This document shows, in pieces, positions 14,781-50,762 of a stretch of 64,000 nt of DNA. Source of the stretch: an uncultured Verrucomicrobiota bacterium (lineage in GTDB: Bacteria; Verrucomicrobiota; Kiritimatiellia; CAYTQP01; CAYXEW01); the NCBI GenBank assembly GCA_964464115.1, contig CAYXEW010000001.1, positions 8,740 to 72,739 on the forward strand. Reading direction: 5' to 3'. A program made the position numbers and the translations under genes. The notes beneath the pieces were generated by a model that was given only the letters and a program-made list of their open reading frames with translations, had not been told where the DNA came from and made no database searches. Each line of letters starts with the position of its first letter. Within the stretch, counting starts at the first letter, position 1.

Positions 14781-14857
14781 TGGTAGCGGGGGCAGGATTT
14801 GAACCTGCGACCTTCAGGTTATGAGCCTGACGAGCTGCCTGGCTGCTCCACCCCGCA
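14781..14857 (-). tRNA. tRNA-Met (anticodon CAU), initiator type
   Basis: The reverse complement folds as a cloverleaf with CCA encoded and anticodon loop CUCAUAA. It is nearly identical to E. coli tRNA-fMet, including the A11:U24 pair. Position 1:72 is unpaired (U1 against U72), and GG/CC pairs are present in the anticodon stem. Confidence 0.85.
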
Positions 14858-20428: not shown

Positions 20429-20505
20429 TGGCGTACCCAGCAGGAGTCGAACCTGCAACCTCCTGATCCGTAGTCAGGTGCTCTATCCAATTGAGCTATG
20501 GGTAC
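20429..20505 (-). tRNA. tRNA-Arg (anticodon ACG)
   Basis: The reverse complement GTACCCATAGCTCAATTGGATAGAGCACCTGACTACGGATCAGGAGGTTGCAGGTTCGACTCCTGCTGGGTACGCCA folds as a cloverleaf. The anticodon loop is CUACGGA and the CCA end is encoded. Confidence 0.9.
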
Positions 20506-20617: not shown

Positions 20618-20975
20618 GGGGGCGACTGGCTTCGACGTGTAGGTTGAAGCATTTGTTGCGTGTCGAGGATATCGGTGGGCCTCGTAAATCATCCGGTAAA
20701 AACAATAAAAGCCAACCAAGAATTGGCCCTCGCAGCGTAACATAAGTCTGCGACGTCTCTACGTTGACGCCTGCTAGGCGATAGAGGCGACGACAGCAGG
20801 CTGGCTCCAAAGCCGGGCAGCCGGGCCGAGGAGTAAGATCTATTTCGTGGCCGCTGGTCCGATGATCAGTCTGTTCGTCGACAGTTCATCGGGCGAGATT
20901 AAATGACGGAATACACACGTAGATGCATATGTGACTCTTATGCGGACGGGGGTTCAATTCCCCCCGCCTCCACCA
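20618..20975 (+). ncRNA. ssrA: tmRNA (ssrA)
   Basis: The 5' end GGGGGCGACUGGCUUCGACG pairs with the 3' end CGCCUCCACCA to form a tRNA-Ala-like acceptor stem carrying the G3-U70 identity pair. A T-arm (GGGGGUUCAAUUCCCCC) and an internal tag ORF (...GCC AAC CAA GAA TTG GCC CTC GCA GCG TAA, peptide ...ANQELALAA) are present. Confidence 0.9.
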
Positions 20976-21648: not shown

Positions 21649-23145
21649 TTGTCATTATCAGATAGGAGAAACAAGGTGCGAGATTATCAGACAGAAGAAG
21701 CGGGAGCAAGTACAGCAAGGCTGGAAACCTTAATTAATGCGTTTTTAAGCAGGTGCAATAAAAGCGAAGTAAAGCTGCGTGCAGATTTAACGATACGAAA
21801 AGAACCAGGATTTACAAGAGCTTCAAGCGGCGCAAAGGTGTGGGAAATCAATCCTGGTGTACTTGATAGAGATGCTTTCCTGAATGAAATTGCTGACGAT
21901 GTTGGGCTTCATGCAGAAACACTTCGCTCAGAAGACTGGGCACCATTAAGGGATCAGATTTGGTTTGACGCAAAACTTGAATTAGCTGTGCGAGATGTGC
22001 CGTGGATACAAGAAACTGATATCCGTATAACCGATTTATATGATCCAAAAGTGCGCTTACTCGTAGGGTTGGGAGATGTCAGGGGCTCAGCTTCATACCA
22101 ATCGTTCTACGTTAATTTTTATCGAAATAGAGAGCTGTCGGAAGTCCAGGCTATTTTTAACACCGCGGGTTATCGATTGATACCCATACCTGTTCAAATG
22201 GAGGAAAAAGATCTTTCTAAAATGGGGCGAGTGTTGAACACAATTTTGGGTGATAACCGTATTATACGGATGGCTTTTACAAAACCAACTAAAGAAGCAG
22301 CAGTCAAAACCGGATTATTTAATGTGATCGATCCTGATACTTTAGATACGGGTGTAGTCAATACTGCGGCTATTGAGAGGGAAGGTTCAGAACGGCATTT
22401 TGTAAGGCGAACTACAGATGGTCTTGGAACTATTGCGAAGGCAAAGGAGAGTCTTGCCAAAACAGGGCGTACGCTTGGAAACAGTATTACGGGTATAATA
22501 GGTTTGCGTGGATTTGGTTCTGCAGTTTTAGGCAAACTTTTGACCGATTTAGAGGCGCCCAACGAAGTTCGTATAGCTGTTAGAGATGCCAGTTATCAAC
22601 ATGCAGTGGAAGTAATAGATTGGATTAAAAAGGCCTATGAGAAAAAAACCGGTAAACCAACACAAACGATCATTCGCATTCTAAAATATTCGGAGTTTGA
22701 TTTTGAACACGAATCACATCCTCTGAAACAAGTCGATGTTTTGTTTGATTGCACAAAAGTCGGCATGAATGATGATCACTATTCTCTGCGTTATTTAGGA
22801 TTCATCACTCCCACTATGATTGTATTCCATGCTGCTTATAGGGATAAAGATAAACAACCGCGTGTGCCGCCTATATTATGCAAGGCCAGAGCGTTTGGAG
22901 CCGTGGTCCATAATGGTATAGCTGATTGGCTGGGGCATCAATATATGCAGGTAACGGAAGATTTGAAACGGGCTTCGGGATTGATGCCGGATATGCCGGA
23001 GTGGAATGATGATAAGTGGGTAACTATTCGCAACCAGCTTGAAAACGTTGCTTTCAAGTGGGCCAATTTACAGGGATTAAAAGATGCTATGGATCTTTTG
23101 GGTGAGTCAGGTGTTGAAGGTCCTAAAGCAGACGGGCATGAATGA
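21649..23145 (+). CDS. hypothetical protein: an N-terminal region of about 270 aa with no family I recognise, fused to a shikimate/quinate-dehydrogenase-like NAD(P)-binding domain. Composition is foreign.
   Basis: The 498-codon ORF is AT-rich (about 40 % GC in the first 100 nt against about 50 % in the neighbouring mutL) and uses A/T-ending codons. A GTG start at 21676, 8 nt after AGGAG, is an alternative start. The C-terminal half aligns by eye with AroE-family motifs: GIIGLRGFGSAVLGKLL...RIAVRDAS (Rossmann loop and NRT-like strand), DVLFDCTKVGM (INATSVGM-like) and HNGIADWLGHQYMQ (NGLGMLxxQA-like). Confidence 0.6.
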   Translation: MSLSDRRNKVRDYQTEEAGASTARLETLINAFLSRCNKSEVKLRADLTIRKEPGFTRASSGAKVWEINPGVLDRDAFLNEIADDVGLHAETLRSEDWAPLRDQIWFDAKLELAVRDVPWIQETDIRITDLYDPKVRLLVGLGDVRGSASYQSFYVNFYRNRELSEVQAIFNTAGYRLIPIPVQMEEKDLSKMGRVLNTILGDNRIIRMAFTKPTKEAAVKTGLFNVIDPDTLDTGVVNTAAIEREGSERHFVRRTTDGLGTIAKAKESLAKTGRTLGNSITGIIGLRGFGSAVLGKLLTDLEAPNEVRIAVRDASYQHAVEVIDWIKKAYEKKTGKPTQTIIRILKYSEFDFEHESHPLKQVDVLFDCTKVGMNDDHYSLRYLGFITPTMIVFHAAYRDKDKQPRVPPILCKARAFGAVVHNGIADWLGHQYMQVTEDLKRASGLMPDMPEWNDDKWVTIRNQLENVAFKWANLQGLKDAMDLLGESGVEGPKADGHE

Positions 23146-32558: not shown

Positions 32559-35500
32559 TTATTCAGCAACTTCAGAGATATAGCGATGATAGAGGGTTGA
32601 AATGGTGTGCTGACTCTCTTTCAGTCGCTGGGACAGGTCATCAGGAGTGGCTCTGACACCCAGGCATCGCTTGGAGAGCGCTTTCAGAGCCTGTCTGTTT
32701 TTCGGCAGTTGATGTATCTGCTGGTCTTCGAGGATCTGGAGGTAGTGTTCAACCTTGCGTAGGAAAATATATTCGCGTTCTAGTGCAATCGCTTCATCAT
32801 TGTCAATAAGTCCGTGTTTGTTCAGACGTTTCAAAGCATCCATGGTGTGGTAGGAGACGATATCCGGGTGCGAAACGGCTTCGGTTAACTGAAGGCTTTG
32901 CACGATAAATTCGACATCCCGAATACCTCCCGGACCGTTTTTGATATCTCGATTGCTGTCAATGCCGTTCGTATGAACGTCGACAGCCGCTTTGCGCATG
33001 CGCACAATATTGGAACAGACAGCTTTGCGATCACGCGGTAGCTGAAAGAGCGGCCAGACCTCGTTCATCAGTTCAACGCCGAGATCTGTGCAGCCGGCGA
33101 CGGGCCGCATCTTCAGCATGGCCTGAATTTCCCAGAGGGCCGCTTTTTTTTCATAATACTGTACAATAAACGGAAGGGAAACGGCCAGGGCCCCGGAGGT
33201 TCCGTATGGGCGCAGTCGAAAATCGACGCGGTAGGCGCAACCATCTTTCATGTAGCGGCTGAGGTCAGAACTCAGCCGTTCCGTAATTTTGGGAAAGAGG
33301 GTTTGCGCATGCACGCCTTCAGGTAAATCCGCGTCATCATAGATGGCAATCAGGTCGATGTCTGAGCTGTAATTGAGTTCATGTCCGCCCAGTTTGCCGA
33401 GGGCGAGTATGCAATAGTGCTCGAGTAAAGCATACTCGGCCAGCTCCGGGTGCGTTGACTGAAATTGCGCCCATACCCGTTCCAGGGCGACCTGCACGAT
33501 GCTGTCGGCGAGCATGGAAAGTTCACTCGCAATTTGCACCAGCGGAAGCCCCAGGCACATATCGCGCGTACCGATACGAAGCATTTCCTTTTTTCTGAAT
33601 GTGCGCATGACGTTTAACCAGTCATCATATGCCCCCGCACTGTCGGCCAGTGTGTGTAATTCTTTTTCAAAAAAAGCGGAGTTGCGCTGTCGGTAGAGGA
33701 CGGAGGGGTCGGTGACCCAGTCAAAGAATTCAGTATGCTGAATCAGGGTTTCAGACAAAAACTGACTGCGCGAAAAGATGCTCAACATCAGGTGCAGCCG
33801 CTCCGGTTGAGCGAACAGCATGGCGTATTCCTCTTTAGCATCACGAATGCGGGATGAAGAAAACCGCTCCCAGTTATTGAGAGCCATGTCGGGATCGGGC
33901 TCCTGTTTTACATAATCGCAGGCCAATACCGCCAAATTGATAAACAGATCCCGCGTACGACCGCTTCCCGTCAGACGGACCAGGTTGTGATATGCCCTTT
34001 CGGGATTCATAAACCCGTGGTCTTTGAGTAACGATTCCATCAGGTTTGGATCCGGTTGATCGGCGAGCAGGAGGTCAGCTATATTGCCCCTGTAGGGCCC
34101 TGGAAGAGATTCGCGGCCGAGGTGTCGGGTGACAAAATGGCGGACGGTGGCGGTGCGTCTTTCAAATTCGACATAAAGCTGGCGCGCCGGATCCAGTTTA
34201 CCGCGGGCTTCATATCCCATACGGCGTGCCAGGTGCATAAATTCCTGTGACGAGACCCCGGGCAGGTAGAGATCTTTGGCATTACCTCTGAGCATACGGA
34301 GCGCATTGATTAATGTACGCAGAAAGTCATAAGCCCTTTCAATGTCTCTCTGCTCGCCTTTCTCCAGAACGCCGGTATCAGTTAATGCTTCCAGTGCCAG
34401 ATGAATGCGGGGGGTTCGCATGGATGCATTAAGGTGGGCGTGCATGACCTGCATGAGCTGCACAGAGTATTCGACATCGACCAGCGCACCCGGGCTGAAC
34501 TTGGCATTATAGATTCCAGGTTTCTGCTTTTCCCTGAACTGACGAGACCTCAAGTCCCTCAATTCCTGCGTTTCAATACGATTGGATTCATAAATAAATT
34601 CATCTCTAAGACGCTCCAGCCGCGTTCCGAGTGCCGGGTCGCCTCCAAAATGTCTCAACCGCACCAGCGACAGCAGTTCATAGGAATGGGCTTCGCCGCC
34701 GGGGCCATAATACTTGCAGAAACTTTCCATACTGACCGCTCGCGGACCGCTCTGACCATGTGGTCTCAGGCGCAAATCAATTGAAAATATACCTTCTCGC
34801 TTGGTGTGTATAAACTGCGTAATGCCTTTGACCAAGTTTGAGAAAAATTCGGCATTGTGAAGTACGTCATCCCCGTTGGTTTTCCCGCTATCGCTATAGA
34901 CAAAAAGCAATTCGATATCCGAGGCATAGCCGAGGGCAGCACCGCCCATCTTGCCGAGACCCAGCAGAGCGTATTGCGCCTTCATTCCGGCAATGGTCAT
35001 GGGGTCGCCGTGTCTGGAAGAAAGATCCGTGTAGATAATCGAGGTGGTCGTGCGGATGATCATCTCTGCAAGGGCTGTCAGTTTTTCTGCCAACTGGCGG
35101 AAATCGATTCTCCGACCCACGATATGATCCAAATCAATCAGAAATAGTTCACGATCCTTGAAGGCATTAAGTACCGCTTGTTTTTCACCAATGTCTGCAG
35201 CGTGATCTAATTGTTGCTGCAAATCTGCTTCCAGTATATCGGAGGACCGGCTAAATGGTTGGTCGTGGCTTTCCAGAGACAGCAGGGGTAACAGCACTTC
35301 ATATTGTGATCGAATAAAATCCTCCCATAGGTAATCACTGGTGCCCAGTACGCGGGCGAGATCGTCCATCGTGTGAGGATCGGCCACCGCCTTCATCCAT
35401 TTGTCGTGATCGGGAGCTTTGATGAGATCTTCGGTCAGTATTTCAAAGCGTGAGAGGGCGGCGTATGGATCGGGGGCCTTCTGCAGATGATAGGTAAATT

Positions 35501-36395
35501 GCTTTGTCAGCAAGACGCACATTTTCAGGCGTATTTCCTGTTTTTCAAATGTTCTGGATCGTCCCGAGATATTAAGGACCTCCATTTCGTCCTCAATTTG
35601 TCCCTCGGCTGTCCGGATAGAGAGTCTTTCTATGGACATGTCCTGTAACGCGAGCGCACTGGACAGCGCGTACAGAAAAGCGGGGGTATCTTGGGAGGTA
35701 ATGTTCAGTCTATAACGGTTTTCAGCCATTTCCGCAATATGGATATCAACGGGCTGCAACATGTTCGTGGTTGCAGAAGATGGGTGCTGCAGGGCATGGA
35801 CCACCCATTCGTTTACCTGTTTACGAGCTTTTTCGATGTCTGCCTGGCGGCCCTTTTCCAGAAGCTCGAAGATGGCGCTGATACGGACCGTCAACTCCTT
35901 TTCCCAGAGCGGTAAAGGCATAGACGATTCCAGGTGCCCTTTGAAGCAGTCTATGATACATCGGTGGTTCTTCATATTCTTTTGCGGGCTGTGCACGCGG
36001 CGGTGAGCGGTATGAACGGGCTTCAAGGCTGGGGACCGCTTGCTGTAAGTGAAGACATGCCCCGCCACGATGCTGAAGTCCATACCGGCCAGGATACCGC
36101 TCAGGACAGAAAAGACCCCGGGATAATTATAGGAAAGAAATGTGACAGAAGTAGAGGAGCCCTCATGTTCCACTTCTAGTTGTACGGGAATATCCGACGG
36201 CAGCGATGCGAGAGCCTGAATGTGCCGAGCTATTTCATCAAAGGTGAAATGCTCGATATAGTCTTCTCCCAGGCGTTCGATGTGCTGCTGGCAGAGATCC
36301 GCGCCCATCTCCGGGTATTCGTCCAGTATGCGTTGAAGTGTATCCTTCACTGTATCAGCTCTCTTTAAAGAATACTTAACCATCTGTAAACCCAT
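32559..36395 (-). CDS. glnE: GlnE-family glutamine synthetase adenylyltransferase/adenylyl-removase, with an N-terminal extension of about 300 aa containing two ACT-like domains
   Basis: Two GlnE-type nucleotidyltransferase motifs about 510 aa apart (LGLGKMGGAALGYASDIELLFVYSD and ILALGKLGGHELNYSSDIDLIAIYDD). N-terminal to them are two segments of ACT-fold pattern (SVTFLSYNYPGVFSVLSGILAGMDFSIVAGHVFTY and RLNITSQDTPAFLYALSSALALQDMSIERLSI). The total is 1278 aa against about 950 for canonical GlnE. Confidence 0.75.
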   Translation of the reverse strand: MGLQMVKYSLKRADTVKDTLQRILDEYPEMGADLCQQHIERLGEDYIEHFTFDEIARHIQALASLPSDIPVQLEVEHEGSSTSVTFLSYNYPGVFSVLSGILAGMDFSIVAGHVFTYSKRSPALKPVHTAHRRVHSPQKNMKNHRCIIDCFKGHLESSMPLPLWEKELTVRISAIFELLEKGRQADIEKARKQVNEWVVHALQHPSSATTNMLQPVDIHIAEMAENRYRLNITSQDTPAFLYALSSALALQDMSIERLSIRTAEGQIEDEMEVLNISGRSRTFEKQEIRLKMCVLLTKQFTYHLQKAPDPYAALSRFEILTEDLIKAPDHDKWMKAVADPHTMDDLARVLGTSDYLWEDFIRSQYEVLLPLLSLESHDQPFSRSSDILEADLQQQLDHAADIGEKQAVLNAFKDRELFLIDLDHIVGRRIDFRQLAEKLTALAEMIIRTTTSIIYTDLSSRHGDPMTIAGMKAQYALLGLGKMGGAALGYASDIELLFVYSDSGKTNGDDVLHNAEFFSNLVKGITQFIHTKREGIFSIDLRLRPHGQSGPRAVSMESFCKYYGPGGEAHSYELLSLVRLRHFGGDPALGTRLERLRDEFIYESNRIETQELRDLRSRQFREKQKPGIYNAKFSPGALVDVEYSVQLMQVMHAHLNASMRTPRIHLALEALTDTGVLEKGEQRDIERAYDFLRTLINALRMLRGNAKDLYLPGVSSQEFMHLARRMGYEARGKLDPARQLYVEFERRTATVRHFVTRHLGRESLPGPYRGNIADLLLADQPDPNLMESLLKDHGFMNPERAYHNLVRLTGSGRTRDLFINLAVLACDYVKQEPDPDMALNNWERFSSSRIRDAKEEYAMLFAQPERLHLMLSIFSRSQFLSETLIQHTEFFDWVTDPSVLYRQRNSAFFEKELHTLADSAGAYDDWLNVMRTFRKKEMLRIGTRDMCLGLPLVQIASELSMLADSIVQVALERVWAQFQSTHPELAEYALLEHYCILALGKLGGHELNYSSDIDLIAIYDDADLPEGVHAQTLFPKITERLSSDLSRYMKDGCAYRVDFRLRPYGTSGALAVSLPFIVQYYEKKAALWEIQAMLKMRPVAGCTDLGVELMNEVWPLFQLPRDRKAVCSNIVRMRKAAVDVHTNGIDSNRDIKNGPGGIRDVEFIVQSLQLTEAVSHPDIVSYHTMDALKRLNKHGLIDNDEAIALEREYIFLRKVEHYLQILEDQQIHQLPKNRQALKALSKRCLGVRATPDDLSQRLKESQHTISTLYHRYISEVAE

Positions 36396-39879: not shown

Positions 39880-40650
39880 CTACCATCTGCACGCTACCGG
39901 ATAATGGTCAGACAGCATATCCAAAGGCGGGTCTGTCAACGGCTTTACGGCCGGTTTACACATCATCATTTCTTCATTGCAGAGGATGTAATCAATCCTC
40001 ATTTCCTCAGAGTGGGCTTTGTCTTCGCGAAGCATGGTGGGAATTGTCTTTCTGAACACGGACGTATGTGCCGGATCGTGCAGGCCCGCATCGAGCAACA
40101 TTTGCATAGGGGTGTAATCTATGGCTCCGCATTTATTGAGGTACTTTCTCGTCAGCTTGGGATGTTGCTTAATGCGGTCGGTCATCGTAACGCTTTCGTA
40201 GTGTGCGCGATCAAGCGGTGACAGAGTGTTCAGGTCACCCATCAGCAGCAATGGACCCCGTATGTCCTTCATTGCGTTCAGCAGGGTCTGCACTTCCCTA
40301 ATCCTGTCATTGCTGTTCCATGGCGAAAGGTGCGTAATCAATATATTTATGTCGAGTATTTGGACATGAATTGCGGCGTGGACAAAAGGGGCGTGGAATG
40401 CTTTTACAGGTCGAATAGGATAGCGCGAAAAGAGACCTATCTGAAAGCCGCTGCTGATCGCTTCTGTAATCCATGCATATTCGTAGCCGCACCGATTAGC
40501 TCTCTTGACGGTATCTTGTATGGAGCCCCAACAGCACAATTCATTAAAACCTGTAATATCATAGGGATGTTCAAGAAGCCAGCGGCACATATCTGCCCAG
40601 CGCTCCTCTTCCCGGCAGCCATTATAGATGTTATACTGGAGAACGTTCAT
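39880..40650 (-). CDS. endonuclease/exonuclease/phosphatase (EEP) family protein
   Basis: An N-terminal NVLQYNI and a C-terminal SDHYPV bracket the EEP fold. Confidence 0.7.
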   Translation of the reverse strand: MNVLQYNIYNGCREEERWADMCRWLLEHPYDITGFNELCCWGSIQDTVKRANRCGYEYAWITEAISSGFQIGLFSRYPIRPVKAFHAPFVHAAIHVQILDINILITHLSPWNSNDRIREVQTLLNAMKDIRGPLLLMGDLNTLSPLDRAHYESVTMTDRIKQHPKLTRKYLNKCGAIDYTPMQMLLDAGLHDPAHTSVFRKTIPTMLREDKAHSEEMRIDYILCNEEMMMCKPAVKPLTDPPLDMLSDHYPVACRW

Positions 40651-40662
40651 AGAGGCCCGGCC

Positions 40663-43600
40663 CTAGCTGTTTTTCAGGGTCGCTAGCATATCCCGCAATT
40701 TCTGCCCCATTGCGCTATGTTCAAACTTGAGAAACAGCTTACCCATGAAGCGAGAAGAACGCAGTGATGAGGTGAACCAGTAAGCCAATCGAGAATTGGG
40801 AAACAGGTAGGTTGGTAATTCCGTCTGTGTAAACGGCATATTCCAGTCAATGCCTTTGAATGCCGTAATATTGGGCATCATAAGAGTCTGAATCCAAGCG
40901 CAAGCAGCTGGATCTAATTGACCTTCAGCCCACTCTTCCGCCATTCCCTGCCTTAAAATGGCCTGATTGACAGACTCCCATATGTGGCCGCTGCCATTAT
41001 GCAGCCATTCTTTCCAGATATCGCCCTCTTCATCGACACAGGCCCTGCCGGTGTCTTTACTCAGTATTGGCGAAAGCTGCAGTGCATTATCAAAAATTCG
41101 GGTTACGTCCTGAATAAAGCGCTCGGGATCCGTCTGCTGGAGTGTGGGGGCATTGTGCAATGCCGGGTTACATCGATACAGTTCGAGGGCCCGCAGGAAT
41201 GCAGTGTGTTCATTGGGGACAAAGCAGGGTCGCTGCAGAGAAAGCAGTGTCAGCATGCGGCCCACTTTTCGCTGGCGCTCCAGAAAGGAATGCGGCGTCA
41301 TCAGGTGATTGTGAAAACCGATGGCGTTTTCCAAGTGGCGCAGGACCATGCCGCGCAAATGCAGGCGATATCCAAATTCAATATCCTCATAAGCCGCGTA
41401 GCGGTAGCGCGTGCTGAAAAGAACTTCTTCACGTATGACGAATGATCTCTTCAGTGAGCAGTTAGAGGTGTAGAGGCGGTCAAAAGGGACGACGGCGTCA
41501 TGGCTCATATCGTTGTATTTAAACTGCTGGCCGCCCGAACCCGTTATGTGTTCCATAAAGACGGTCTCGGGTAAGTCCGGATGCCAGAGGGTCAGTCCGA
41601 CAAAGGCCGTGTCTTCCTGCGGGAATCGATCGTGGCCACGTATATGGGTCGACAGAAAGTCCTTGCGCGGCTCGATATCATCGCCGGTAATGAGGATGAT
41701 TTTGCCCGCGGCCTGTTGTATCGCCAGGTTTCGAGCCGCTGCGGGACCGCCTTGACCGCAGTTGTCCAATACGCGGACATTCAGCATACTGTGTCTGGAG
41801 GCCTCTCGCTGTACGGCCTCGAGGTCCCCGTGATCATTGACAATGACAATTTCATACGTCCGCGGATCGATCGTCTGTTGCCGGTAGGCGTTCAGCGTCT
41901 GACCCAGAACATCGACCCGATCTTTTGTCGGAATAATGACCGAAAGGTCTACCGTGTCAGGATAGTTTCGTTTACTGATTTCGACGAAGCGATCATCGTG
42001 CCAGTCTTCAAGGGTTTTCATGAGGCGCCCAGCGGCAGCATCCCATGAAAAATTTGAACGAACCTGTTCCAGTGCCCGCTGACCGGTTTCGATCACTTCA
42101 TCTCTGCGATCAAGAATGGATGTAAGCTGTTCTGTCAGGCTGTCTTCGCGCGGTTGACACCAGTAAGCACCTTCTCCGAGAAAATAGTGATTGTAGTCAT
42201 AGCAGTTTTTGACGGGTACTTCATCGTAGGGAAGGTCGAAAAACATGCCCGAACGGGCAAACTCCATGGGGCCTCCGAAAGCGGGCATCAATGTGGGCAC
42301 CCCGACAGCAGCAGCATCCAGGATTTTCATAGCAAAGCCCTCCCCGCGAAACGGGGCCAGCTGGATATCCATGGAGGCGTACAACCTGATCAGGTCTTGC
42401 TTACTGAGGAATTCCCTGTGCCAGACAATACGCGGAAATTGTGGTTGTTCGGCGATCCACTTCTTGAGCTGCGCATCACTGGCCCCGGCCCCGTAATCCT
42501 TGATATGCAGGACAACCGGATCCCGCTCGCTGTAGGCGCGACCCAGTGCTTTTATGGCGATGTCCGTTCCGTAGCGGTAGAGATCATGGGAATTCGTCAC
42601 CATCAGCATTTGCAGTTCATCGTTATTATTCTTCCCCGCAAGGGCATCGGCATCCGGGTACAGCGCATCGATTTCCGTTGAATAGCCGAGGGGTACCGTT
42701 TGGCAGGCCTTTTCCGGAATTCCTATTTCCAGCAATGCATCCCGGTTAAAACCGGATACCGGTATTTTACGGAATTCATTGACTTGGACATGGCGCATCC
42801 AGAGATCCAGCTTCCGCCCTTCCATTCGGTAACGATAGTTTGTGCAGAAGAACTCGGCATTGATGTCACCGAACAGTGGTTTCCTGTAATAGTCTGGCCA
42901 GTAATGGGTCCATTTGACATGATAGGTACTGCGAGGCTGCGCAGACATACAGGCCCGCAGCATATTCTGATGATGCCTCTCAATGGAGTCATCCAGCTTG
43001 GTGGACATGGGAATACTCAGTGAGACGCCGCGTCTGCGGAGGGCTCCCATGAGATCAACAGTAGCCCATGTGAAGGCATTGGCTTTTGTAAAATCGACAT
43101 TCAGGTGGAGTCCTTTTTCAGCGCTCGGTCGGTTGCTAGTCCTGCGAGCCGCTTTTTCATTGTGGATACGGTCCTGTTCTCCCAGTGTTTCCAAATCCCA
43201 CTCGTAGCGGTTATTCCAGCGCGACAAAAACTGTTGCCAGTTCTCTTCATCTTTTTCCGTTCTTCCTTCGGTGGCCTGACCGTAGTGATATATTTTACTG
43301 GCAGGCGTATACCAGACACCATATCCGGCCTGCCGTGAGCGAAGGCAAAAATCGACGTCTTCAAAGCCGTTTTGGTAGCTTTCATCGAGGCCGCCCAGTT
43401 CGTCGTATACCTTTTTAGCTATCATGACGCAGGCGAAGGTGACGCACTGAAATTGACGCTGGTAGAGAGCGGAGGGCGTATCGGGCGGCATTCCGGGATT
43501 CAGATGGAGGGGAAAGCCCTCTTTGTCAAACCCCATTCCTGCATGCTGAATCTTTCCTGAATCCGGATAGAGGTGGCAATTGGCCAATACCCCGACGCGA

Positions 43601-43947
43601 TCTGTTGACTCCATCACAGCGACCATGTTGTCGAGCCAGCCCGGCGTAACAAAGGTATCATTATTGAGCAGGCAGAGCAGTTCGCCTTTGGCTTCTTTTG
43701 CGCCCCTGTTATTGTTGGTACTGTAAGACTTCCGGGTGTCATTGCGGAACGTTCTGATGGGAATATCGCCAGCCAGTCCGGACAGGTCGGGCTGTTCACT
43801 TCCGGCATCGTCAATCAGGATGATCTCCCGGGATACGCGGCCTGAGCAATCAACGATGGATTTCACACAGGCTTCGGTTAACTCCCTGCAGTTATAATAA
43901 GGGATAATAATTGATACCTTTGGGGCATCCTGTCTTTCCAGTGCCAT
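40663..43947 (-). CDS. large multi-domain glycosyltransferase (an N-terminal GT2, a central GT4-like region and a C-terminal GT2)
   Basis: VSIIIPYYNC...LIDDAGS (GT2), a central Rossmann GT-B-like region, then LSVIIPTKDR...IVIVNDHGD (a second GT2). It is 1094 aa. Confidence 0.75.
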   Translation of the reverse strand: MALERQDAPKVSIIIPYYNCRELTEACVKSIVDCSGRVSREIILIDDAGSEQPDLSGLAGDIPIRTFRNDTRKSYSTNNNRGAKEAKGELLCLLNNDTFVTPGWLDNMVAVMESTDRVGVLANCHLYPDSGKIQHAGMGFDKEGFPLHLNPGMPPDTPSALYQRQFQCVTFACVMIAKKVYDELGGLDESYQNGFEDVDFCLRSRQAGYGVWYTPASKIYHYGQATEGRTEKDEENWQQFLSRWNNRYEWDLETLGEQDRIHNEKAARRTSNRPSAEKGLHLNVDFTKANAFTWATVDLMGALRRRGVSLSIPMSTKLDDSIERHHQNMLRACMSAQPRSTYHVKWTHYWPDYYRKPLFGDINAEFFCTNYRYRMEGRKLDLWMRHVQVNEFRKIPVSGFNRDALLEIGIPEKACQTVPLGYSTEIDALYPDADALAGKNNNDELQMLMVTNSHDLYRYGTDIAIKALGRAYSERDPVVLHIKDYGAGASDAQLKKWIAEQPQFPRIVWHREFLSKQDLIRLYASMDIQLAPFRGEGFAMKILDAAAVGVPTLMPAFGGPMEFARSGMFFDLPYDEVPVKNCYDYNHYFLGEGAYWCQPREDSLTEQLTSILDRRDEVIETGQRALEQVRSNFSWDAAAGRLMKTLEDWHDDRFVEISKRNYPDTVDLSVIIPTKDRVDVLGQTLNAYRQQTIDPRTYEIVIVNDHGDLEAVQREASRHSMLNVRVLDNCGQGGPAAARNLAIQQAAGKIILITGDDIEPRKDFLSTHIRGHDRFPQEDTAFVGLTLWHPDLPETVFMEHITGSGGQQFKYNDMSHDAVVPFDRLYTSNCSLKRSFVIREEVLFSTRYRYAAYEDIEFGYRLHLRGMVLRHLENAIGFHNHLMTPHSFLERQRKVGRMLTLLSLQRPCFVPNEHTAFLRALELYRCNPALHNAPTLQQTDPERFIQDVTRIFDNALQLSPILSKDTGRACVDEEGDIWKEWLHNGSGHIWESVNQAILRQGMAEEWAEGQLDPAACAWIQTLMMPNITAFKGIDWNMPFTQTELPTYLFPNSRLAYWFTSSLRSSRFMGKLFLKFEHSAMGQKLRDMLATLKNS

Positions 43948-43964
43948 GACGCAAACCTCTTCTT

Positions 43965-45179
43965 CTATTTCGCCGTACCTCTATATGTCACTTCCATGTC
44001 GGCCTCCAGATTGGCGATACCGTAAGCCGGCTTGTCTGAAATCGCCTCAAAGGCAATACTTTCAGAACCGCCGATTGTTTCCGGCATATCCTTTTTTATT
44101 TCTGCGAGTCCCATACCCAGCCGGAAAGGGCCGGGGCAGATATTCATACGAATGTTCACCTTTACGGCTATGCGCTCGCCCGCTTTCATGGGGCGAATGG
44201 GGGTGTGCGCAGAGCGGGAATTATAGTCGTAGGCCGTAAAGCCCATCATGGTTTTGAGTTGAATACTAATGAGCGGCTCTTCTATATCAACATGGACCGT
44301 GAACTCCGCTCTAATAAAGTATTCTTCACCCGTGCGCGGGTGGATCACCTCGACACCTTTGTCATCGGTCAATACCATTTTTTCAAATGACATACGCGGC
44401 CCCGGCGCATAATCCGAGCCGGAGTTTTCCGGTGCGTCGGTCGTACTCAGTCTGGCCAGATAGGTGTCGGTTACTTCTTTGGGGTCACCGGTGCAAATCA
44501 TGTAACCCTTGTCCAACAGGATAGCCTCATCGCAGAGCATTTGAACGGCATTCAAATCATGGGATACAAATAGGATGCTGGTACCGTTCTTCTTCAATTC
44601 CTCGATGCGGCGAAAGCAGCGGGACTGGAAGCCGATATCGCCCACTGACAAGATCTCATCGATGAGTAACAGGGTGGGGTTTACTTCAATAGCAACCGCA
44701 AATGCCAGGCGTGCAAACATGCCGGAGGAGTATGTCTTGACGGGATAATCGATGTGTTTTCCGATGTCGGCAAAGGCGATAATGCGGTCCAGTTTTTCTT
44801 CCAGTTCATGGGGCTGGTAGCCATAGATGGATCCCGAGAGCATGACATTTTCCCGGCCGGTAAAATCGGGATTAAAACCCGCTCCCAGTTCGAGCAGTGC
44901 CGCGACGTTGCCCTCCACGTGAATAGATCCGACCGTCGGTTCCAGCAAACCGGCAACCATTTGCATGAGCGTCGACTTTCCACTGCCGTTTTTGCCGATA
45001 ATGCCGAGCACCCGGCCGGCTTTCAGCTCAAAGGATACATCCCGCAGAGCCCAAAATTCATTGGCGGTCGGCATCTTTAAAAAAGGGAACAGATAGCGCA
45101 TTCGATTGCCTGCTTTCAAATCAGGATACGACTTTCCCAAGTGTTCCGCTTTTACCAGCAGGTTCAGGCTACAAGACAT
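43965..45179 (-). CDS. wzt: Wzt/TagH-type polysaccharide ABC exporter ATPase with a C-terminal glycan-binding beta-sandwich domain
   Basis: GIIGKNGSGKSTL, LSGGM-type signature and Walker B, then a C-terminal extension of about 150 aa. I place the start at MSCSLNLL (ATG at 45179, GAGG upstream), 7 nt after the wzm stop; the track ORF extends further 5'. Confidence 0.8.
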   Translation of the reverse strand: MSCSLNLLVKAEHLGKSYPDLKAGNRMRYLFPFLKMPTANEFWALRDVSFELKAGRVLGIIGKNGSGKSTLMQMVAGLLEPTVGSIHVEGNVAALLELGAGFNPDFTGRENVMLSGSIYGYQPHELEEKLDRIIAFADIGKHIDYPVKTYSSGMFARLAFAVAIEVNPTLLLIDEILSVGDIGFQSRCFRRIEELKKNGTSILFVSHDLNAVQMLCDEAILLDKGYMICTGDPKEVTDTYLARLSTTDAPENSGSDYAPGPRMSFEKMVLTDDKGVEVIHPRTGEEYFIRAEFTVHVDIEEPLISIQLKTMMGFTAYDYNSRSAHTPIRPMKAGERIAVKVNIRMNICPGPFRLGMGLAEIKKDMPETIGGSESIAFEAISDKPAYGIANLEADMEVTYRGTAK

Positions 45180-46041
45180 CGGCGAACCTCCGTTTAACGG
45201 CCTTGAACCATCCGGCGACCAGTAACAGCAATAGAATATTGCCCAGCATCTGGTATATCCACATACGCATTTGCAACGGTACGCCGAGAATACAGTTTTC
45301 ACGAATTTGCAGCACGGCCACCGCCACCGGATTGATCCACAGGATTACGCGCCAGGCTTCCGGAATAAAATTGGCAGGATAGATGATCGGTGTCAGGAAA
45401 AAGAGGATATTCATCAGCAGGCCTATGCCGTGACTGAGATCTCTGATAAAAACGCCTGCGGCCGCCAGAAAGAGGGCCGCACTGAGTGTGAAAAGGGTCA
45501 GTGGAAGCCAGATGAGGGGAAGGTAAAGGGCGGTCAGCGGAATATAGCCGAGCACATAGTAAATCAGCACAAAGAGTAACCCGGTGGAGATGAGCGCATG
45601 AAAAAGGGAAGACCCCAGCACTACCGCCGGCAGTAGCTGTACGGGAAAGGCAATACGTTTCACGTAGTTGGGAGACTGCAGTATCAGGGCGGGAGCCCGT
45701 GAAACCGTTTCCACAAAACAGTTAAAAGGAATGAGACCACAGAAAAACATAACAACAAAATAGGCCGGCTGATCCTGCGCGCCCCAGCGCATTTTAAAAA
45801 AATAGCCAAAGACGAGGGTATAGGTTGCCAGCAATGTGAGAGGCGTAATAAGGCTCCACAGCAGGCCGAGCCCCGAGCCGCGGTAGCGTGCGGCAATTTC
45901 CCGGCGCGTAAGGGCCAAGAGAAGCCCCCTGTGTTTGATAAAGGAACCCATTGTTTCAAATGAGGAACGGAATATGGCAACTAGAGTATTCATCGTCGCG
46001 GTGATTTCCTCAGACAGGTCGACCGTTCCGGGAATACCCAT
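45169..46041 (-). CDS. wzm: ABC-2 type polysaccharide exporter permease (Wzm)
   Basis: ABC-2 permease with 6 TM helices. It lies immediately upstream of, and is coupled to, wzt. Confidence 0.8.
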   Translation of the reverse strand: MGIPGTVDLSEEITATMNTLVAIFRSSFETMGSFIKHRGLLLALTRREIAARYRGSGLGLLWSLITPLTLLATYTLVFGYFFKMRWGAQDQPAYFVVMFFCGLIPFNCFVETVSRAPALILQSPNYVKRIAFPVQLLPAVVLGSSLFHALISTGLLFVLIYYVLGYIPLTALYLPLIWLPLTLFTLSAALFLAAAGVFIRDLSHGIGLLMNILFFLTPIIYPANFIPEAWRVILWINPVAVAVLQIRENCILGVPLQMRMWIYQMLGNILLLLLVAGWFKAVKRRFADVL

Positions 46042-46268
46042 GCCGGCACATCTGCATTATTACCATGCGAGAGAACCCGATCACTTTTTACGCTCAGCTC
46101 CAAATTCATCGGTCGAAAATAGGCAAGCACCCCTGGATTGTCAAGCTATTCCCCCGCCGCCGTTGAGCCTTTTCACCGATCGCCGGTATGCATTTTTGTG
46201 CTTGTTTAGTGAACCTAAAAAGGCAACTGTATCTGGGTGCCCCAAGTGAGGTGCATTGATCTGCGTTT

Positions 46269-47216
46269 ATGGAAAAAACAACTACAGCTTATGCCCCGGC
46301 GGTGTCGATTGTCATTCCCACGTTGAATGCAGCTTCATATATGGAACCGCTACTCCGAGCAATTACCACCCAGCACTACGACAACCTCAGGGAAATTATC
46401 GTGCTGGATTCGCAATCGACGGACCGCACCTGTGAACTGGCCGCGCTGTATGAGAATGTTCGGGTGGAGACCGTTGAACAGTTTTCCCACGGAGGTTCAC
46501 GGAATATGGGGACGGTTATGAGCACCGGTGATATCGTCGTTTTTCTGAGTCAGGATGCACTGCCGGCCAACAAGCACTGGTTGGAAAATCTCATCAAACC
46601 GTTTCAGGACGCTGATGTCGCTGCTGCTTTTTCCCGTCAGGTGCCGCGTCCTGATGCCAACCCCATGGAACGCTATTTTCTGTTGACGCACTTTCCTGAG
46701 AAAAACAGGCGTTACGGTCCTGCGCCCGATGGGCGAGAACTGTATTTTCAGGACGATGTCTTCTTTTCCAACGTCAGCTCGGCCCTCCGGCGCCATCTGG
46801 CTCTGGATTTCCCTTTTTCAGATGATATCATTATGAGCGAAGATCAGCAATTTGCCCGCGATGTGCAGCGGGAAGGTTTTGCGGTGGCATATGCGGCAGA
46901 ATCAGTGGTCTGTCACTCGCATAAGTACACGCTTCGCACCGTCTTTCAGCGCTATTTTGACAGTGTCTATTCCCTGACCCAAGTTTTTCCGTCGCATGGT
47001 TTTACGCACAGCATTCGTCTCGGAGCGCGCTATGCCTTCGCCGAATGTTTATACATTCTGCGCGTCAGACCATTCTGGTTTCCTTACTATCTGCTGTATG
47101 CGCTGAACCGCGCGGCAGCCGTTTTTCTGGCGCACTGGGCAGATCGTATACCGCTGTGGCTGGTAAAAAAAATGAGTATGCACAAGTATTACTGGGATCA
47201 TGAACAGAGAATGTGA
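46269..47216 (+). CDS. GT2 family glycosyltransferase
   Basis: VSIVIPTLNAASYM...IVLDSQSTDRT...SQDA. Confidence 0.8.
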   Translation: MEKTTTAYAPAVSIVIPTLNAASYMEPLLRAITTQHYDNLREIIVLDSQSTDRTCELAALYENVRVETVEQFSHGGSRNMGTVMSTGDIVVFLSQDALPANKHWLENLIKPFQDADVAAAFSRQVPRPDANPMERYFLLTHFPEKNRRYGPAPDGRELYFQDDVFFSNVSSALRRHLALDFPFSDDIIMSEDQQFARDVQREGFAVAYAAESVVCHSHKYTLRTVFQRYFDSVYSLTQVFPSHGFTHSIRLGARYAFAECLYILRVRPFWFPYYLLYALNRAAAVFLAHWADRIPLWLVKKMSMHKYYWDHEQRM

Positions 47217-49563
47217 GAATATAACAGCTCTGCCGACTAACGGGCCTGAAGTGAGCGTCATTCTCGTAAACTATAACGGGAAAAAGTGGCTGGAGAACTG
47301 CCTGAGAAGTCTCCGCCGTACACGAGATGTGTCTTTTGATATTATTCTGATCGACAATGCATCCGTTGACGGAAGTCTCGACTGGCTCCGGGAACACGCG
47401 CCGGACATCCAGGTGCTGTCTCAGGATGTCAATATAGGATTTGGGCGCGCTAATGCGATCGGTGTAAGCGAAGCGCGCGGTTCCTATGTCGCGTTTCTGA
47501 ATACGGATACTGCGGTGGACCCCGATTGGCTGTCGGCACTGCTGCATGGCCTCAGAGAAGATGAATCCATCGGCGCCGTGACATCGTTGATGACCTCGAT
47601 GGATCATCCTGAGATGATCAATGCTGCGGGCGGGGGAATGACGTGGACCGGTTACAGTTACAGGCGTTACTGCAACTGGTTTATTGACGATTATGCTGCA
47701 CTGCATGGTGACAGTTGCGCTGATGTATTCTTTGCTTCCGGAGCTGCCATGCTGATGAAAAAGGAGACGTTTCTGGAAGTGGGCGGCTTTGATGACGCCA
47801 TGTTCATGTATCATGAGGATGTCGATCTTGGATGGCGCTTATGGCTGGCCGGTGTTCGGGTCGCCGTCTGTCCTGCATCACGCGTACGGCATGCCGACAC
47901 CGGTTTCGAACAGGCTGCTGAAGCGATGTCTTTTTCCGAGGTGATGGGTGCGCGCCACAATGTCAGAACGCTCCTGAAGTGCTTTGAATGGCGGCAGGCC
48001 TTGATAGCCCTCTTTTATATAGCCATGATGTATGCCTATAAAAAACGCTTTGGCTTATTGTTTAAAGTCGCGTTATGGAATCTATATAAGGGGCCTTCAA
48101 CTATGGCAGAACGCCGGCGCATTCAAAAGGGTCGCGTTCGATGCGACCGGGAACTGCTGGACCGCTCTAGAATTGATCCATATGCGGCATTTCCGAGTCC
48201 GCTCTACCGCTTTAAGCCGGATGTGCCGCCCGAAGGACTCCTGATGAGCCACCACCTCTACCCGGGCGAAGATTCAGCTCTGGGGCGACTCGGGGAAGGG
48301 TGGTCAGCAAAGGTTGAGACAGATGGAAAGCCCTGTCGTATGATGGCGGATGCAGCCCACTGCGTCATGCTGGCCCGGCCCGGTCAGAAGGGGGCACTAC
48401 ATATCCATTTCAAGGGACTCAATGTGCACGGTACCACAACGCTGTATCTACACTGCAATGAACAATTTCTGAAAACAGATATACGCGATGGCCAATGGCA
48501 CGAGATGCAGATAAATGTGAATGTGCCGGAATCGGGACTGCTACAGATAAGAATGGGTCTTCAGGAACAGCATACAGTTCGATCGATTCACCGCACGCAT
48601 CTGAGCGTGAAATGCATCGTTTTTGAGCCCGATGAATCGGTTGAGGTAAAAACCCGGCCCGTTACTACCGCCGTTGTCATACCGCATATGAACAAGGGTG
48701 GTCCAATAGCTGAAGTAATCCGAGCCCTCGAACGCCAGACCGTGCTGCCCACTGAAGTGATTATTGTCGATGACGGTTCGCGTGTCCAACCTTTGGAAGA
48801 GCTGAAAGAAGTGGTTTCCAAACCTTGGAAGATACCCGTGCAACTCATTTGCCAGGCACATGCCGGACCCTCTGTCGCCCGGAACAGAGGGGTCGACGCT
48901 GCCAGCTCTGACATCGTGCTTTTTATTGGTGATGACATTTGTCCTGGGGAATGCTGGCTCGAACATCATCTGCGCACCCACGAGGAGTTGGGGCCGGGCC
49001 ATGCTGTTTGCGGTTATACGGTGTGGGACGATGACCGTATGCGCGTATCACCGCTTTTGAACTATGTGAATGAACACGGCGAGCAGTTTGGTTATGCGTA
49101 TTTCACGCAGCGCGGTGCTTTGCCTTTTACCTGCTTTTACACCAGCAATATATCGATAGCCCGCGATCTGCTGGAAATCTATCGCTTTGATCCGTGGTTT
49201 ACCGATGCCTGCTGGGAAGACTGTGAACTGGGCTATCGGCTGTGTTGTGCAGGAGTGCGCATCATCTACGAAGAGCGCGCCTCTGCGCGTCACTATCATC
49301 CCATGAATGCGACCGCTTTTTACCGCCGCCAGCAAAAAGCGGGGCGCCTCTATGCGACCATGGTGCGCGAGCGCTGGCCGCGCTTACAGGCCCATTTTTA
49401 TAATCCGTCTGAGCGCATGTTAGAGCGCTTGAAACGGTTTGAATGGTTGATTGAGGTCGGTGTCAAAACAATCTGTCTTGTGGATCGTTTTAATATTCCG
49501 CTGCCAAAGGCCGTATACCGTTATTCACTGGCGCTGGTCTATTGCCTCAGTATGCGGGAGTGA
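47200..49563 (+). CDS. tandem double-GT2 glycosyltransferase
   Basis: Two separate GT2 cores: VSVILVNYNGKKWL...ILIDNASVDGS...NTD at the N-terminus, and AVVIPHMNKGGPI...IIVDDGS...GDD at about residue 490. It is 787 aa. Confidence 0.8.
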   Translation: MNRECENITALPTNGPEVSVILVNYNGKKWLENCLRSLRRTRDVSFDIILIDNASVDGSLDWLREHAPDIQVLSQDVNIGFGRANAIGVSEARGSYVAFLNTDTAVDPDWLSALLHGLREDESIGAVTSLMTSMDHPEMINAAGGGMTWTGYSYRRYCNWFIDDYAALHGDSCADVFFASGAAMLMKKETFLEVGGFDDAMFMYHEDVDLGWRLWLAGVRVAVCPASRVRHADTGFEQAAEAMSFSEVMGARHNVRTLLKCFEWRQALIALFYIAMMYAYKKRFGLLFKVALWNLYKGPSTMAERRRIQKGRVRCDRELLDRSRIDPYAAFPSPLYRFKPDVPPEGLLMSHHLYPGEDSALGRLGEGWSAKVETDGKPCRMMADAAHCVMLARPGQKGALHIHFKGLNVHGTTTLYLHCNEQFLKTDIRDGQWHEMQINVNVPESGLLQIRMGLQEQHTVRSIHRTHLSVKCIVFEPDESVEVKTRPVTTAVVIPHMNKGGPIAEVIRALERQTVLPTEVIIVDDGSRVQPLEELKEVVSKPWKIPVQLICQAHAGPSVARNRGVDAASSDIVLFIGDDICPGECWLEHHLRTHEELGPGHAVCGYTVWDDDRMRVSPLLNYVNEHGEQFGYAYFTQRGALPFTCFYTSNISIARDLLEIYRFDPWFTDACWEDCELGYRLCCAGVRIIYEERASARHYHPMNATAFYRRQQKAGRLYATMVRERWPRLQAHFYNPSERMLERLKRFEWLIEVGVKTICLVDRFNIPLPKAVYRYSLALVYCLSMRE

Positions 49564-49577
49564 GCACCTGAACGCAA

Positions 49578-50756: not shown

Positions 50757-50762
50757 GATTGT

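Follow-up and report, generated by a model that had tools for sequence, protein, structure and literature searches.

An uncultured Kiritimatiellia bacterium encodes a GlnE-family enzyme with a predicted N-terminal ACT tandem of the GlnD kind

Adenylylation of glutamine synthetase (GS) by GlnE belongs to a textbook bicyclic regulatory cascade. The Escherichia coli glnE gene (b3053) encodes a protein of 946 aa, of which structures 1v4a and 3k7d represent the N-terminal adenylyl-removing (AR) and the C-terminal adenylylating (AT) domain, respectively; to our knowledge, no structure shows the glutamine site of GlnE. ACT domains in general bind many different small molecules, and their usual ligand site is the β1-α1 loop. 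In GlnD, the ACT domains are required for the response to glutamine (Zhang et al. 2010, as cited in PMC11190351), and in the Chlamydomonas α-amylase AMA2 a GlnD-like ACT domain confers activation by glutamine (PMC11190351). According to a preprint (bioRxiv 10.64898/2026.09.02.748916), the AT activity of canonical GlnE is stimulated by glutamine via its central plus C-terminal part, and the E. coli and Herbaspirillum enzymes sense glutamine directly through this AT part, which renders outdated the premise of our initial annotation that canonical GlnE perceives glutamine through PII. The same preprint reports that Streptomyces GlnE works independently of PII and GlnD and that AMPylation in Herbaspirillum can be GlnB-independent, and it treats the validity of the E. 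coli scheme beyond Proteobacteria as an active question.

Here we analysed a GlnE-family gene in the window, that is, the whole 64,000-nucleotide stretch of DNA under study. The gene is one unbroken ORF of 1278 codons plus stop. Because the alignment of relatives begins at codon 16, where the window has a GTG (36350) preceded by a purine-rich stretch, translation probably starts there and yields a product of 1263 aa. Pfam GlnE (PF03710; E 3.2e-96) and GlnD_UR_UTase (PF08335; E 4.7e-41) each match twice, and, in line with the initial annotation, the protein is a GlnE made of two halves, each of which retains an intact nucleotidyltransferase motif. The first half carries G481-K-x-G-G...S492-D493-I-E495 with D540-x-RLRP and the second G1000-KLGG...D1012-I-D1014 with D1058-x-RLRP, all conserved among 120 homologues. 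An extension of ~300 residues lies ahead of the two halves.

Table 1 Features of the ACT-GlnE gene, with positions in the window.
Feature	Positions	Strand	Basis or detail
Whole ORF, ACT-ACT-GlnE (glutamine synthetase adenylyltransferase / adenylyl-removing enzyme family)	32559..36395	minus	ORF and domain scans
GTG start, probably the true one, codon 16	36348..36350	minus	sequence read: aaagagagctgataca GTG AAG GAT
Three N-terminal helices, residues 16-63	36207..36350	minus	AF2 helices 16-26, 32-49, 52-63
Predicted ACT1, residues 71-181, β-β-α-β-[insert]-β-α	35853..36185	minus	AF2, family consensus and hhalign
Basic insertion within ACT1, residues 117-145	35961..36047	minus	predicted disordered, pLDDT <50 at 126-139
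Predicted ACT2, residues 217-304	35484..35747	minus	AF2, hhalign and sub-threshold Pfam ACT match
First catalytic half, residues 305-790: helical lead-in, nucleotidyltransferase core and PF08335	34026..35483	minus	closest to AT-C
First-half nucleotidyltransferase motif G481-K-M-G-G-A-A-L-G-Y-A-S-D493-I-E495	34911..34955	minus	80-99% conservation, 120 homologues
Second catalytic half, residues 791-1278	32562..34025	minus	closest to canonical AT-N / AR half
Second-half nucleotidyltransferase motif G1000-K-L-G-G-H-E-L-N-Y-S-S-D1012-I-D1014	33354..33398	minus	conserved in homologues

Scanned alone, the N-terminus matched NCBIfam GlnD models at E values of 5.6e-11 (PRK05092, whose positions 671-785, the GlnD ACT region, align with residues 11-126), 5.4e-8 (TIGR01693), 2.6e-4 (PRK03059, positions 770-849/857, with residues 209-292) and 6.4e-4. 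An hhalign comparison of the family profile with the C-terminus of seven GlnD proteins gave 98% probability (E 2.9e-13) over 236 columns, at an identity to the GlnD ACT domains of only ~21%. The alignment starts at the three N-terminal helices, which are homologous to the helical segment before ACT1 in GlnD, and has D-x-P-[GA]-[LF] loops in common between the two families. In the predicted structure the extension contains two copies of the ACT-type α/β fold. Their D-x-P-x-F loop motifs, located between β1 and α1, are invariant or nearly so family-wide: the ACT2 loop, D236-T-P238-A-F240-L-Y242, is invariant, and the ACT1 motif reads N90-Y-P-G-V-F in the window protein against a family consensus of D-Y-P-x-E-F. 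The 'GxF' loop pattern of the initial annotation fits ACT1 (P92-G93-V-F95) but not ACT2, which has P238-A-F240 instead. The insertion within ACT1 is arginine-rich across the whole family and falls in a gap of the alignment to GlnD. Together, the GlnD models and the hhalign match support the assignment of the N-terminal ~300 residues as an ACT tandem specifically of the GlnD kind, and the two ACT domains that had been read from the sequence stand. The general ACT profile is matched more weakly: PF01842 is found at E<=0.01 in 18 of 34 family members (best 7.4e-6) and, as a precomputed match, in 13 of 120 homologues, but the window protein scores 17.4 bits at residues 228-273, below the gathering threshold of 27. 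Neither the N-terminal sequence by itself nor a family profile of this region gave a meaningful match among PDB chains, which include no full-length GlnD structure.

Two features absent from the initial annotation are the order of the catalytic halves and the tie of the ACT tandem to the AT-type half. In NCBIfam scans the first half matched the C-terminal halves of all three canonical GlnE models and the second half the N-terminal halves of two of the three. Hhalign scores were 429 against AT-C and 393 against AT-N for the first half, and 614 against AT-N and 490 against AT-C for the second. When the halves of family members were located by HMM, the AT-N profile was favoured for the second half by 18-97 bits in 20 of 20 members; for the first half the difference averages only -9 bits, with 3 of 20 members going the other way. 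The corresponding split for the first half in a neighbor-joining tree was supported in 141/200 bootstraps (70%), where long-branch attraction between the two more divergent groups may affect its AT-C assignment. Pairwise BLAST of each half to E. coli AT-N and AT-C is ambiguous (112 vs 110 bits and 153 vs 142 bits), the columns discriminating the two types number only five and give a mixed signal, and the spacing of catalytic motifs is not diagnostic. Foldseek with a model of residues 1-790 (pTM 0.80) matched 1v4a (AT-N) and 3k7d (AT-C) almost equally and is indecisive; the model would be compatible with a single packed unit made up of the ACT tandem and the AT half. The second half is thus strongly indicated to be of the canonical N-terminal, deadenylylating (AT-N / AR) type, and there is moderate support for the first half being of the canonical C-terminal, adenylylating (AT-C) type. 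Since the ACT-adjacent half matches the canonical C-terminal half and the last half the canonical N-terminal one, their order appears, with moderate support, to be inverted relative to canonical GlnE.

The fusion is shared with relatives. The ACT-GlnE module occurs in at least 535 GTDB species genomes of Desulfobacterota, Spirochaetota, Planctomycetota and other PVC lineages. The family extends over at least five groups of phylum rank, whose members are mostly uncultured and largely anaerobic; one carrier, strain NaphS2, is in culture. Matches at E<=1e-30 fall into 302 clusters at 50% identity, and each of the best 120 homologues is 1230-1316 aa long, with 95-100% coverage. Three architectures were found: ACT2-AT-AR, as in the window protein; AR-ACT2-AT, in proteins of about 1230-1260 aa (P0243, P0250); and ACT2-AT alone, as in P0139 (737 aa) and the Planctomycetota loci L054, L061, L068 and L072. 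In every one of them the ACT tandem stands directly ahead of the AT-type half. In one relative (L025) the full-length gene is split into two frames. Literature searches found no paper describing a GlnE with ACT domains.

The initial annotation saw none of glnA, glnB and glnD nearby, and none of them turned up in the window, either by Pfam in the 10 flanking ORFs and 10 further large ORFs or, for glnB, by tblastn of E. coli GlnB against the whole window. Synteny of the window gene was conserved in none of the relatives compared, and in two closed MAG chromosomes no nitrogen genes adjoin ACT-glnE. Among relatives, 37 of 73 have glnA (GS type I) immediately upstream on the same strand, and the adenylylation-site motif D-K/R-x-I/L-Y-D-L/M is kept in 44 of 44 full-length GS type I genes near ACT-glnE (>=60% identical to the query GS and >=400 aa). 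Because there is no glnA near the window gene, GS is put forward as the target in the window organism from these relatives. A complete GlnD (PF08335 and HD) is encoded within 10 kb of ACT-glnE in 7 loci, with an ACT domain also present in 3 of 4 of these GlnDs scanned, and PII in 10, often as part of a single amtB-glnK-glnD-glnB-amtB-glnA-glnE cluster; therefore the relay and the fusion coexist, and at least in Desulfobacterota ACT-GlnE does not replace GlnD and PII. Most non-Desulfobacterota loci have neither PII nor GlnD within 10 kb.

The reading that we consider fairly probable is that the protein is a bifunctional GlnE-family enzyme that AMPylates and de-AMPylates GS, in which an amino acid, probably glutamine, binds the GlnD-type ACT tandem and tunes the adjacent AT half. 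A GlnE-family enzyme would have acquired the sensor module of GlnD, comprising linker helices, ACT1 and ACT2, giving the layout [GlnD-type ACT1-ACT2] - [adenylylating half, AT-C type] - [adenylyl-removing half, AT-N type], with the tandem placed right before the AT half, approximately where canonical GlnE has its central regulatory region. What the ligand is, in which direction it acts and how the two reactions are divided between the halves are inferred as follows. Under nitrogen sufficiency an amino acid would occupy the D-x-P-x-F loops of ACT1 and ACT2; by analogy with GlnD and the other fusions of GlnD-type ACTs, glutamine is the most likely candidate. Binding would alter the packing of the tandem on the adjacent AT half and stimulate the AMPylation of GS type I at its conserved tyrosine. 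At low ligand the C-terminal AR half would reverse the modification, and lineages that possess PII may still use PII or PII-UMP as an effector, above all of the AR half. Counting against this model are the sub-threshold Pfam ACT match, N90 of ACT1, where the family has D, the scores below the NCBIfam GlnE cut-offs, the absence of a glnA near the window gene, the moderate support for the AT-C assignment of the first half and the variety of small molecules that ACT domains bind.

The initial annotation had gone further and seen in the fusion a possible PII-independent nitrogen sensor; in this reading the enzyme would be self-contained, would stand in for the GlnD-PII relay and would let glutamine act on GS adenylylation without PII input. 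The ACT tandem does take the place of the canonical central region, glnB and glnD were not found in the window, most loci outside Desulfobacterota have no PII or GlnD nearby, and Streptomyces GlnE and Herbaspirillum AMPylation without GlnB would be precedents (bioRxiv 10.64898/2026.09.02.748916). However, GlnD, PII and AmtB genes beside ACT-glnE in relatives speak against the claim, the gene absence holds for the 64-kb window only and not for the rest of the genome, and the AR-type half, the canonical partner of PII-UMP, is well conserved; we regard this reading as unlikely. A wider proposal, possible if tentative, is a modular and self-sufficient glutamine-gated GS AMPylase, in which the GlnD sensor has been transplanted onto the GlnE AT half, ACT-ACT-AT works alone (Planctomycetota) or joined to an AR half in either order, and the GlnD-PII relay is dispensable for GS control in lineages such as Kiritimatiellia.

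It is also doubtful that the ACT tandem senses not glutamine but a different ligand, such as 2-oxoglutarate, a nucleotide or another amino acid, and feeds a different signal into GS control. The low identity to the GlnD ACTs and the family-specific basic insertion in ACT1 would suit such a divergence, but the closest sequence relatives are the GlnD ACT pair rather than other ACT families, tested GlnD-type ACTs have proved responsive to glutamine (PMC11190351), and glutamine is the physiological effector of canonical GlnE AT activity. The conserved basic insertion, predicted disordered, resembles an interaction element more than a ligand site and could point to a tandem that binds no ligand and serves a structural role in oligomerisation or in docking to the GS dodecamer or PII; near-invariant D-x-P-x-F loops are hard to explain without a binding function, and we find this role quite improbable. 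The chance that the long ORF joins two genes by frameshift or mis-assembly is negligible: the contiguous architecture is found in hundreds of independent assemblies, closed chromosomes included, the junction region 'LLTKQFTYFL..APDPY' ranks among the best-conserved stretches, and L025 represents the opposite case, a full-length gene that has been broken. A frameshift fusion, tried as a candidate, is ruled out by the full-length homologues and the number of species. The glutamine-responsive bifunctional enzyme remains our preferred reading.

The ACT-GlnE family constitutes a natural experiment, in which a recognisable, separable sensor module stays with one particular catalytic half across three architectures, permuted or truncated. 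If the tandem binds glutamine, the family would offer a tractable system for the route of the signal to the AT active site, and it would also show that regulatory parts of GlnD and GlnE can be interchanged. Annotation is also affected: the name now given to these proteins is simply 'glutamate-ammonia-ligase adenylyltransferase', and they score under the NCBIfam GlnE equivalog cut-offs, the window protein under all three (439.8 vs 487 for PRK11072, 423.2 vs 625 for PRK14109 and 391.8 vs 724 for PRK14108).

Compared with canonical GlnE, the window protein likewise consists of two paralogous halves, each with nucleotidyltransferase and PF08335 domains and with intact G-x-G-G...S-D-x-[DE] and D-x-RLRP motifs, and it matches both E. 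coli GlnE structures in sequence and in fold at about 26-30% identity to the E. coli protein. In relatives, the glnA linkage and the adenylylation tyrosine kept in neighbouring GS are further points of resemblance. The window protein differs in the ~300 extra residues assigned to a GlnD-type ACT tandem, in a probable AT-type-first, AR-type-last order that is the reverse of the canonical one, and in the D-I-E rather than D-x-D of its AT-type half. With GlnD (NT-PF08335-HD-ACT-ACT) it has nucleotidyltransferase and PF08335 domains in common, and its N-terminal 300 residues are homologous to the C-terminal ~240 of GlnD, which comprise the pre-ACT helices and both ACT domains. In GlnD, however, the ACT tandem is C-terminal and is without the ~28-residue basic insertion in ACT1, whereas the window protein has the tandem N-terminal, carries two GlnE-type nucleotidyltransferase halves and gave no match to an HD phosphohydrolase domain in Pfam and NCBIfam scans; in relatives, GlnD is separately encoded in the same gene clusters. 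GlnD-type ACT domains are also joined to other catalytic partners in Chlamydomonas AMA2 and in plant ACR proteins (ACR11), whereas the partner here itself serves nitrogen regulation and, in its canonical form, senses glutamine with no ACT domain. The two sister forms also carry this ACT tandem, joined immediately ahead of an AT half of the same type, and differ in the AR half: in AR-ACT-ACT-AT it is N-terminal, collinear with canonical GlnE, and in stand-alone ACT-ACT-AT it is absent, whereas in the window protein it is C-terminal.

A single unbroken open reading frame of 1278 codons occupies positions 32559–36395 on the minus strand of the window. Pfam identified in its product two GlnE nucleotidyltransferase domains (E = 3.2e-96) and two GlnD_UR_UTase helical domains (E = 4.7e-41), and both E. 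coli GlnE crystal structures were found by sequence match with the protein. An N-terminal ACT-ACT tandem precedes two catalytic halves, half 1 (residues 305–790) and half 2 (residues 791–1278). The nucleotidyltransferase motifs of both halves, which the initial annotation had described as intact, are present (D493/E495/D540 and D1012/D1014/D1058) and kept in 80–99% of 120 homologues. Because the relatives' proteins begin at the equivalent of window codon 16, where the window has a GTG, the product is probably a protein of 1263 residues. The first 15 called codons (36348–36395) have no counterpart in relatives.

Features of the window and of the ACT-GlnE gene
Feature	Position	Strand	Details
tRNA-Met(CAT)	14781–14857	minus	further upstream of the tmRNA and tRNA-Arg(ACG) genes
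tRNA-Arg(ACG)	20429–20505	minus	next to the tmRNA gene
tmRNA gene	20618–20975	plus	tag peptide ANQELALAA; adjoins tRNA-Arg(ACG)
Basic arginine-rich loop in ACT1, 28 residues	35961–36047 (residues 117–145)	minus	predicted disordered by AlphaFold2
Likely true start, GTG	codon 16	minus	preceded by purine-rich AAGAGAG; alignment with relatives
Half 1 motif	G481-K-x-G-G...S-D493-I-E495 + D540-x-RLRP	minus	alignment of 120 homologues
Half 2 motif	G1000-K-L-G-G...S-D1012-I-D1014 + D1058-x-RLRP	minus	alignment of 120 homologues
Surface-polysaccharide cluster, large	39880–54208

The polysaccharide cluster encodes a 1094-aa protein with two GT2 stretches and GT1/GT4-type matches, a Wzt-type ABC ATPase with a Wzt_C domain, and several more GT2 enzymes together with a PMT_2-like membrane protein; its 487-aa ORF (52745–54208) had no Pfam match. 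Just downstream of the tmRNA gene lies a 498-aa ORF (21649–23145, plus strand, TTG start) that had no Pfam match at E ≤ 1e-5.

When the N-terminal ~300 residues were scanned alone, they matched only GlnD models, and only at the C-terminal ends of these models (PRK05092, positions 671–785 of 940, E = 5.6e-11; TIGR01693, E = 5.4e-8; PRK03059, positions 770–849 of 857, E = 2.6e-4). The HMM check of the initial annotation held for GlnE and GlnD_UR_UTase but not for the generic Pfam ACT model, which scored 17.4 bits over residues 228–273, below its threshold of 27; a Pfam ACT match at E ≤ 0.01 was obtained in 18 of 34 diverse family members. A profile of these 34 sequences aligned with the C-termini of seven GlnD proteins from the relatives' own gene clusters at 98% probability (E = 2.9e-13) over 236 columns, which span the pre-ACT1 helices, ACT1, the connecting helices and ACT2, and the D-x-P-[GA]-[LF] loops of both ACT domains coincide. 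AlphaFold2, supplied with the family alignment, returned a confident N-terminal model (pLDDT 88, pTM 0.86) consisting of three helices followed by two β-β-α-β-β-α units, and Foldseek ranked L-GDH180 first with this model. The model matches, profile alignment, predicted fold and fold searches therefore show that the two ACT domains initially proposed within the ~300 extra residues are correct, and that they form an ACT pair specifically of the GlnD type. The basic loop in ACT1 (consensus ...RR...RRRIID) recurs across the family as a whole and has no equivalent in GlnD; it may take part in interactions.

In canonical GlnE, the N-terminal half (AT-N) carries the adenylyl-removing (AR) and the C-terminal half (AT-C) the adenylyl-transferring (AT) activity, an established division of labour that a preprint (bioRxiv 10.64898/2026.09.02.748916) and the titles of structures 1v4a and 3k7d repeat. 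We used nine canonical GlnE proteins as references, E. coli GlnE and eight others from chromosome or chromid records. For half 2, the AT-N profile outscored the C-terminal-half profile by 18–97 bits in 20 of 20 family members, with profile-profile scores of 614 (AT-N) versus 490 (AT-C). The preference of half 1 for AT-C was weaker, averaging 9 bits and seen in 17 of 20 members, with profile-profile scores of 429 (AT-C) versus 393 (AT-N). NCBIfam matched the window's half 1 to the C-terminal half in each of the three canonical models. In a neighbour-joining tree, half 1 clustered with the second halves of canonical GlnE and half 2 with the first halves, a split found again in 141 of 200 bootstraps. 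Fold comparison matched 1v4a and 3k7d equally well, and the columns diagnostic of AT-N versus AT-C were too few to discriminate. Judged by sequence, half 2 can be assigned to the AR type with good confidence and half 1 to the AT type with moderate confidence. The profile scores, NCBIfam mapping and tree point to the order ACT-ACT / AT-type / AR-type in the window protein, with the halves the opposite way round from canonical GlnE (AR-AT).

The fusion is not confined to the window. We detected the ACT-GlnE module in at least 535 GTDB species in a scan of one genome per species, and an exhaustive HMM search (E ≤ 1e-30) gave 302 clusters at 50% identity. Each of the 120 best database homologues has 1230–1316 aa and 95–100% query coverage, and they share 45–51% identity with the query, except for its own database entry (100%). 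The 80 best loci, among them loci on closed chromosomes and in a single cultured strain (NaphS2), derive from Desulfobacterota/"delta" (44), Spirochaetota (12), other PVC lineages (8), Planctomycetota (7), Chitinivibrionales/FCPU426 (3) and unclassified genomes (6). The named best matches to the window's SecA belong to Kiritimatiellae, Verrucomicrobia and Lentisphaerae (67–72% identity), so a Kiritimatiellia-like PVC bacterium is the most likely source of the window. ACT-GlnE is thus a conserved family, and the concern that it might be a fusion artefact was not borne out. Databases label these proteins plain GlnE, with an automatic PF01842 match in a minority. In one Desulfatiglandales MAG (locus L025, 10007–13794 of a 4.1-Mb contig), ACT-glnE lies in two overlapping frames, with the break at the position matching residue 638, which probably reflects an assembly frameshift or a pseudogene.

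Three architectures were counted among the 150 best representatives: the window type (~50), a half-2-like / ACT-ACT / half-1-like type (~12, e.g. protein P0243) and ACT-ACT with half 1 alone (~38, of which ~23 are 725–800 aa). Throughout this set, the GlnE half following the ACT tandem, wherever present, is of the half-1 type. The stand-alone form is genuine, because protein P0139 (737 aa) is encoded by a complete gene inside a contig and no second half was found in any frame in four Planctomycetota loci (L054, L061, L068 and L072). Such ACT-ACT-AT genes, encoding ~740–910 aa, occur in these four loci, in L092 and as P0139; because these loci lack an AR-type half, they would specify a monofunctional AMPylase or rely on a separately encoded AR enzyme. 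Protein P0173 (997 aa) carries a FolB (dihydroneopterin aldolase) domain ahead of the tandem, and a 1509-aa ORF in L068 (5111–9640) has ~600 extra residues at this position; the latter call may be over-extended.

The statement that glnA, glnB and glnD are missing nearby stands, as neither these genes nor amtB were found in the window by Pfam on 20 ORFs or by PII tblastn of the whole window. In 37 of 73 relatives' loci the gene immediately upstream, in the same orientation, encodes GS type I, and the motif D-K/R-x-I/L-Y-D-L/M is kept in all 44 full-length GS type I proteins near ACT-glnE, its tyrosine aligning with the E. coli adenylylation tyrosine. GS is therefore very probably the target. 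The initial annotation had further suggested a PII-independent nitrogen sensor. Within 10 kb of the relatives' gene, complete GlnD is encoded in 7 loci, PII in 10 and AmtB in 8, several loci containing amtB-glnK-glnD-glnB-amtB-glnA-glnE clusters; PF08335 and HD were matched in each of the four GlnDs scanned, ACT in three of them. Thus, the fusion and the GlnD-PII relay coexist, at least in lineages with such loci. Since relay genes adjoin ACT-glnE in several relatives, and since direct glutamine sensing and PII-independent AMPylation already exist in some canonical GlnE, the suggestion is not supported. PII-independent control in the PVC, Spirochaetota or Planctomycetota carriers seems rather unlikely. 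Compact amtB-glnK-glnD-glnB/K-amtB-glnA-(ACT)glnE clusters are present in the Desulfobacterota loci L055, L015, L009, L020 and L076, the last with three PII genes within 10 kb.

A three-step model is the most parsimonious. By analogy, the GlnD-derived tandem would sense an amino acid, most likely glutamine, and would control the AT-type half, its constant fusion partner; high glutamine would consequently favour GS AMPylation, which the AR-type half would reverse. What the ligand is, in which direction it acts and whether PII has an input are our inferences. The predicted model of residues 1–790 (pTM 0.80) would weakly suggest a packed ACT-AT unit. The scheme fits the requirement of the GlnD ACT domains for the glutamine response of GlnD (Zhang et al. 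2010, as cited in PMC11190351), the glutamine activation that a GlnD-like ACT confers on an unrelated enzyme (PMC11190351) and the action of glutamine on the central and C-terminal AT portion of canonical GlnE (bioRxiv 10.64898/2026.09.02.748916).

We found no paper in the searchable literature that treats GlnE together with an ACT domain, and the GlnE/GlnD-ACT combination, the inverted or permuted half order and the stand-alone ACT-ACT-AT form appear to be undescribed; the individual parts are all known. ACT-GlnE is no new principle but a good experimental handle on how glutamine gets to the AT site. The circularly permuted AR-type / ACT-ACT / AT-type sister form (P0243, P0250, P0258, P0262, P0266 and P0267) follows the canonical GlnE order, its ACT tandem standing where canonical GlnE has the central region.
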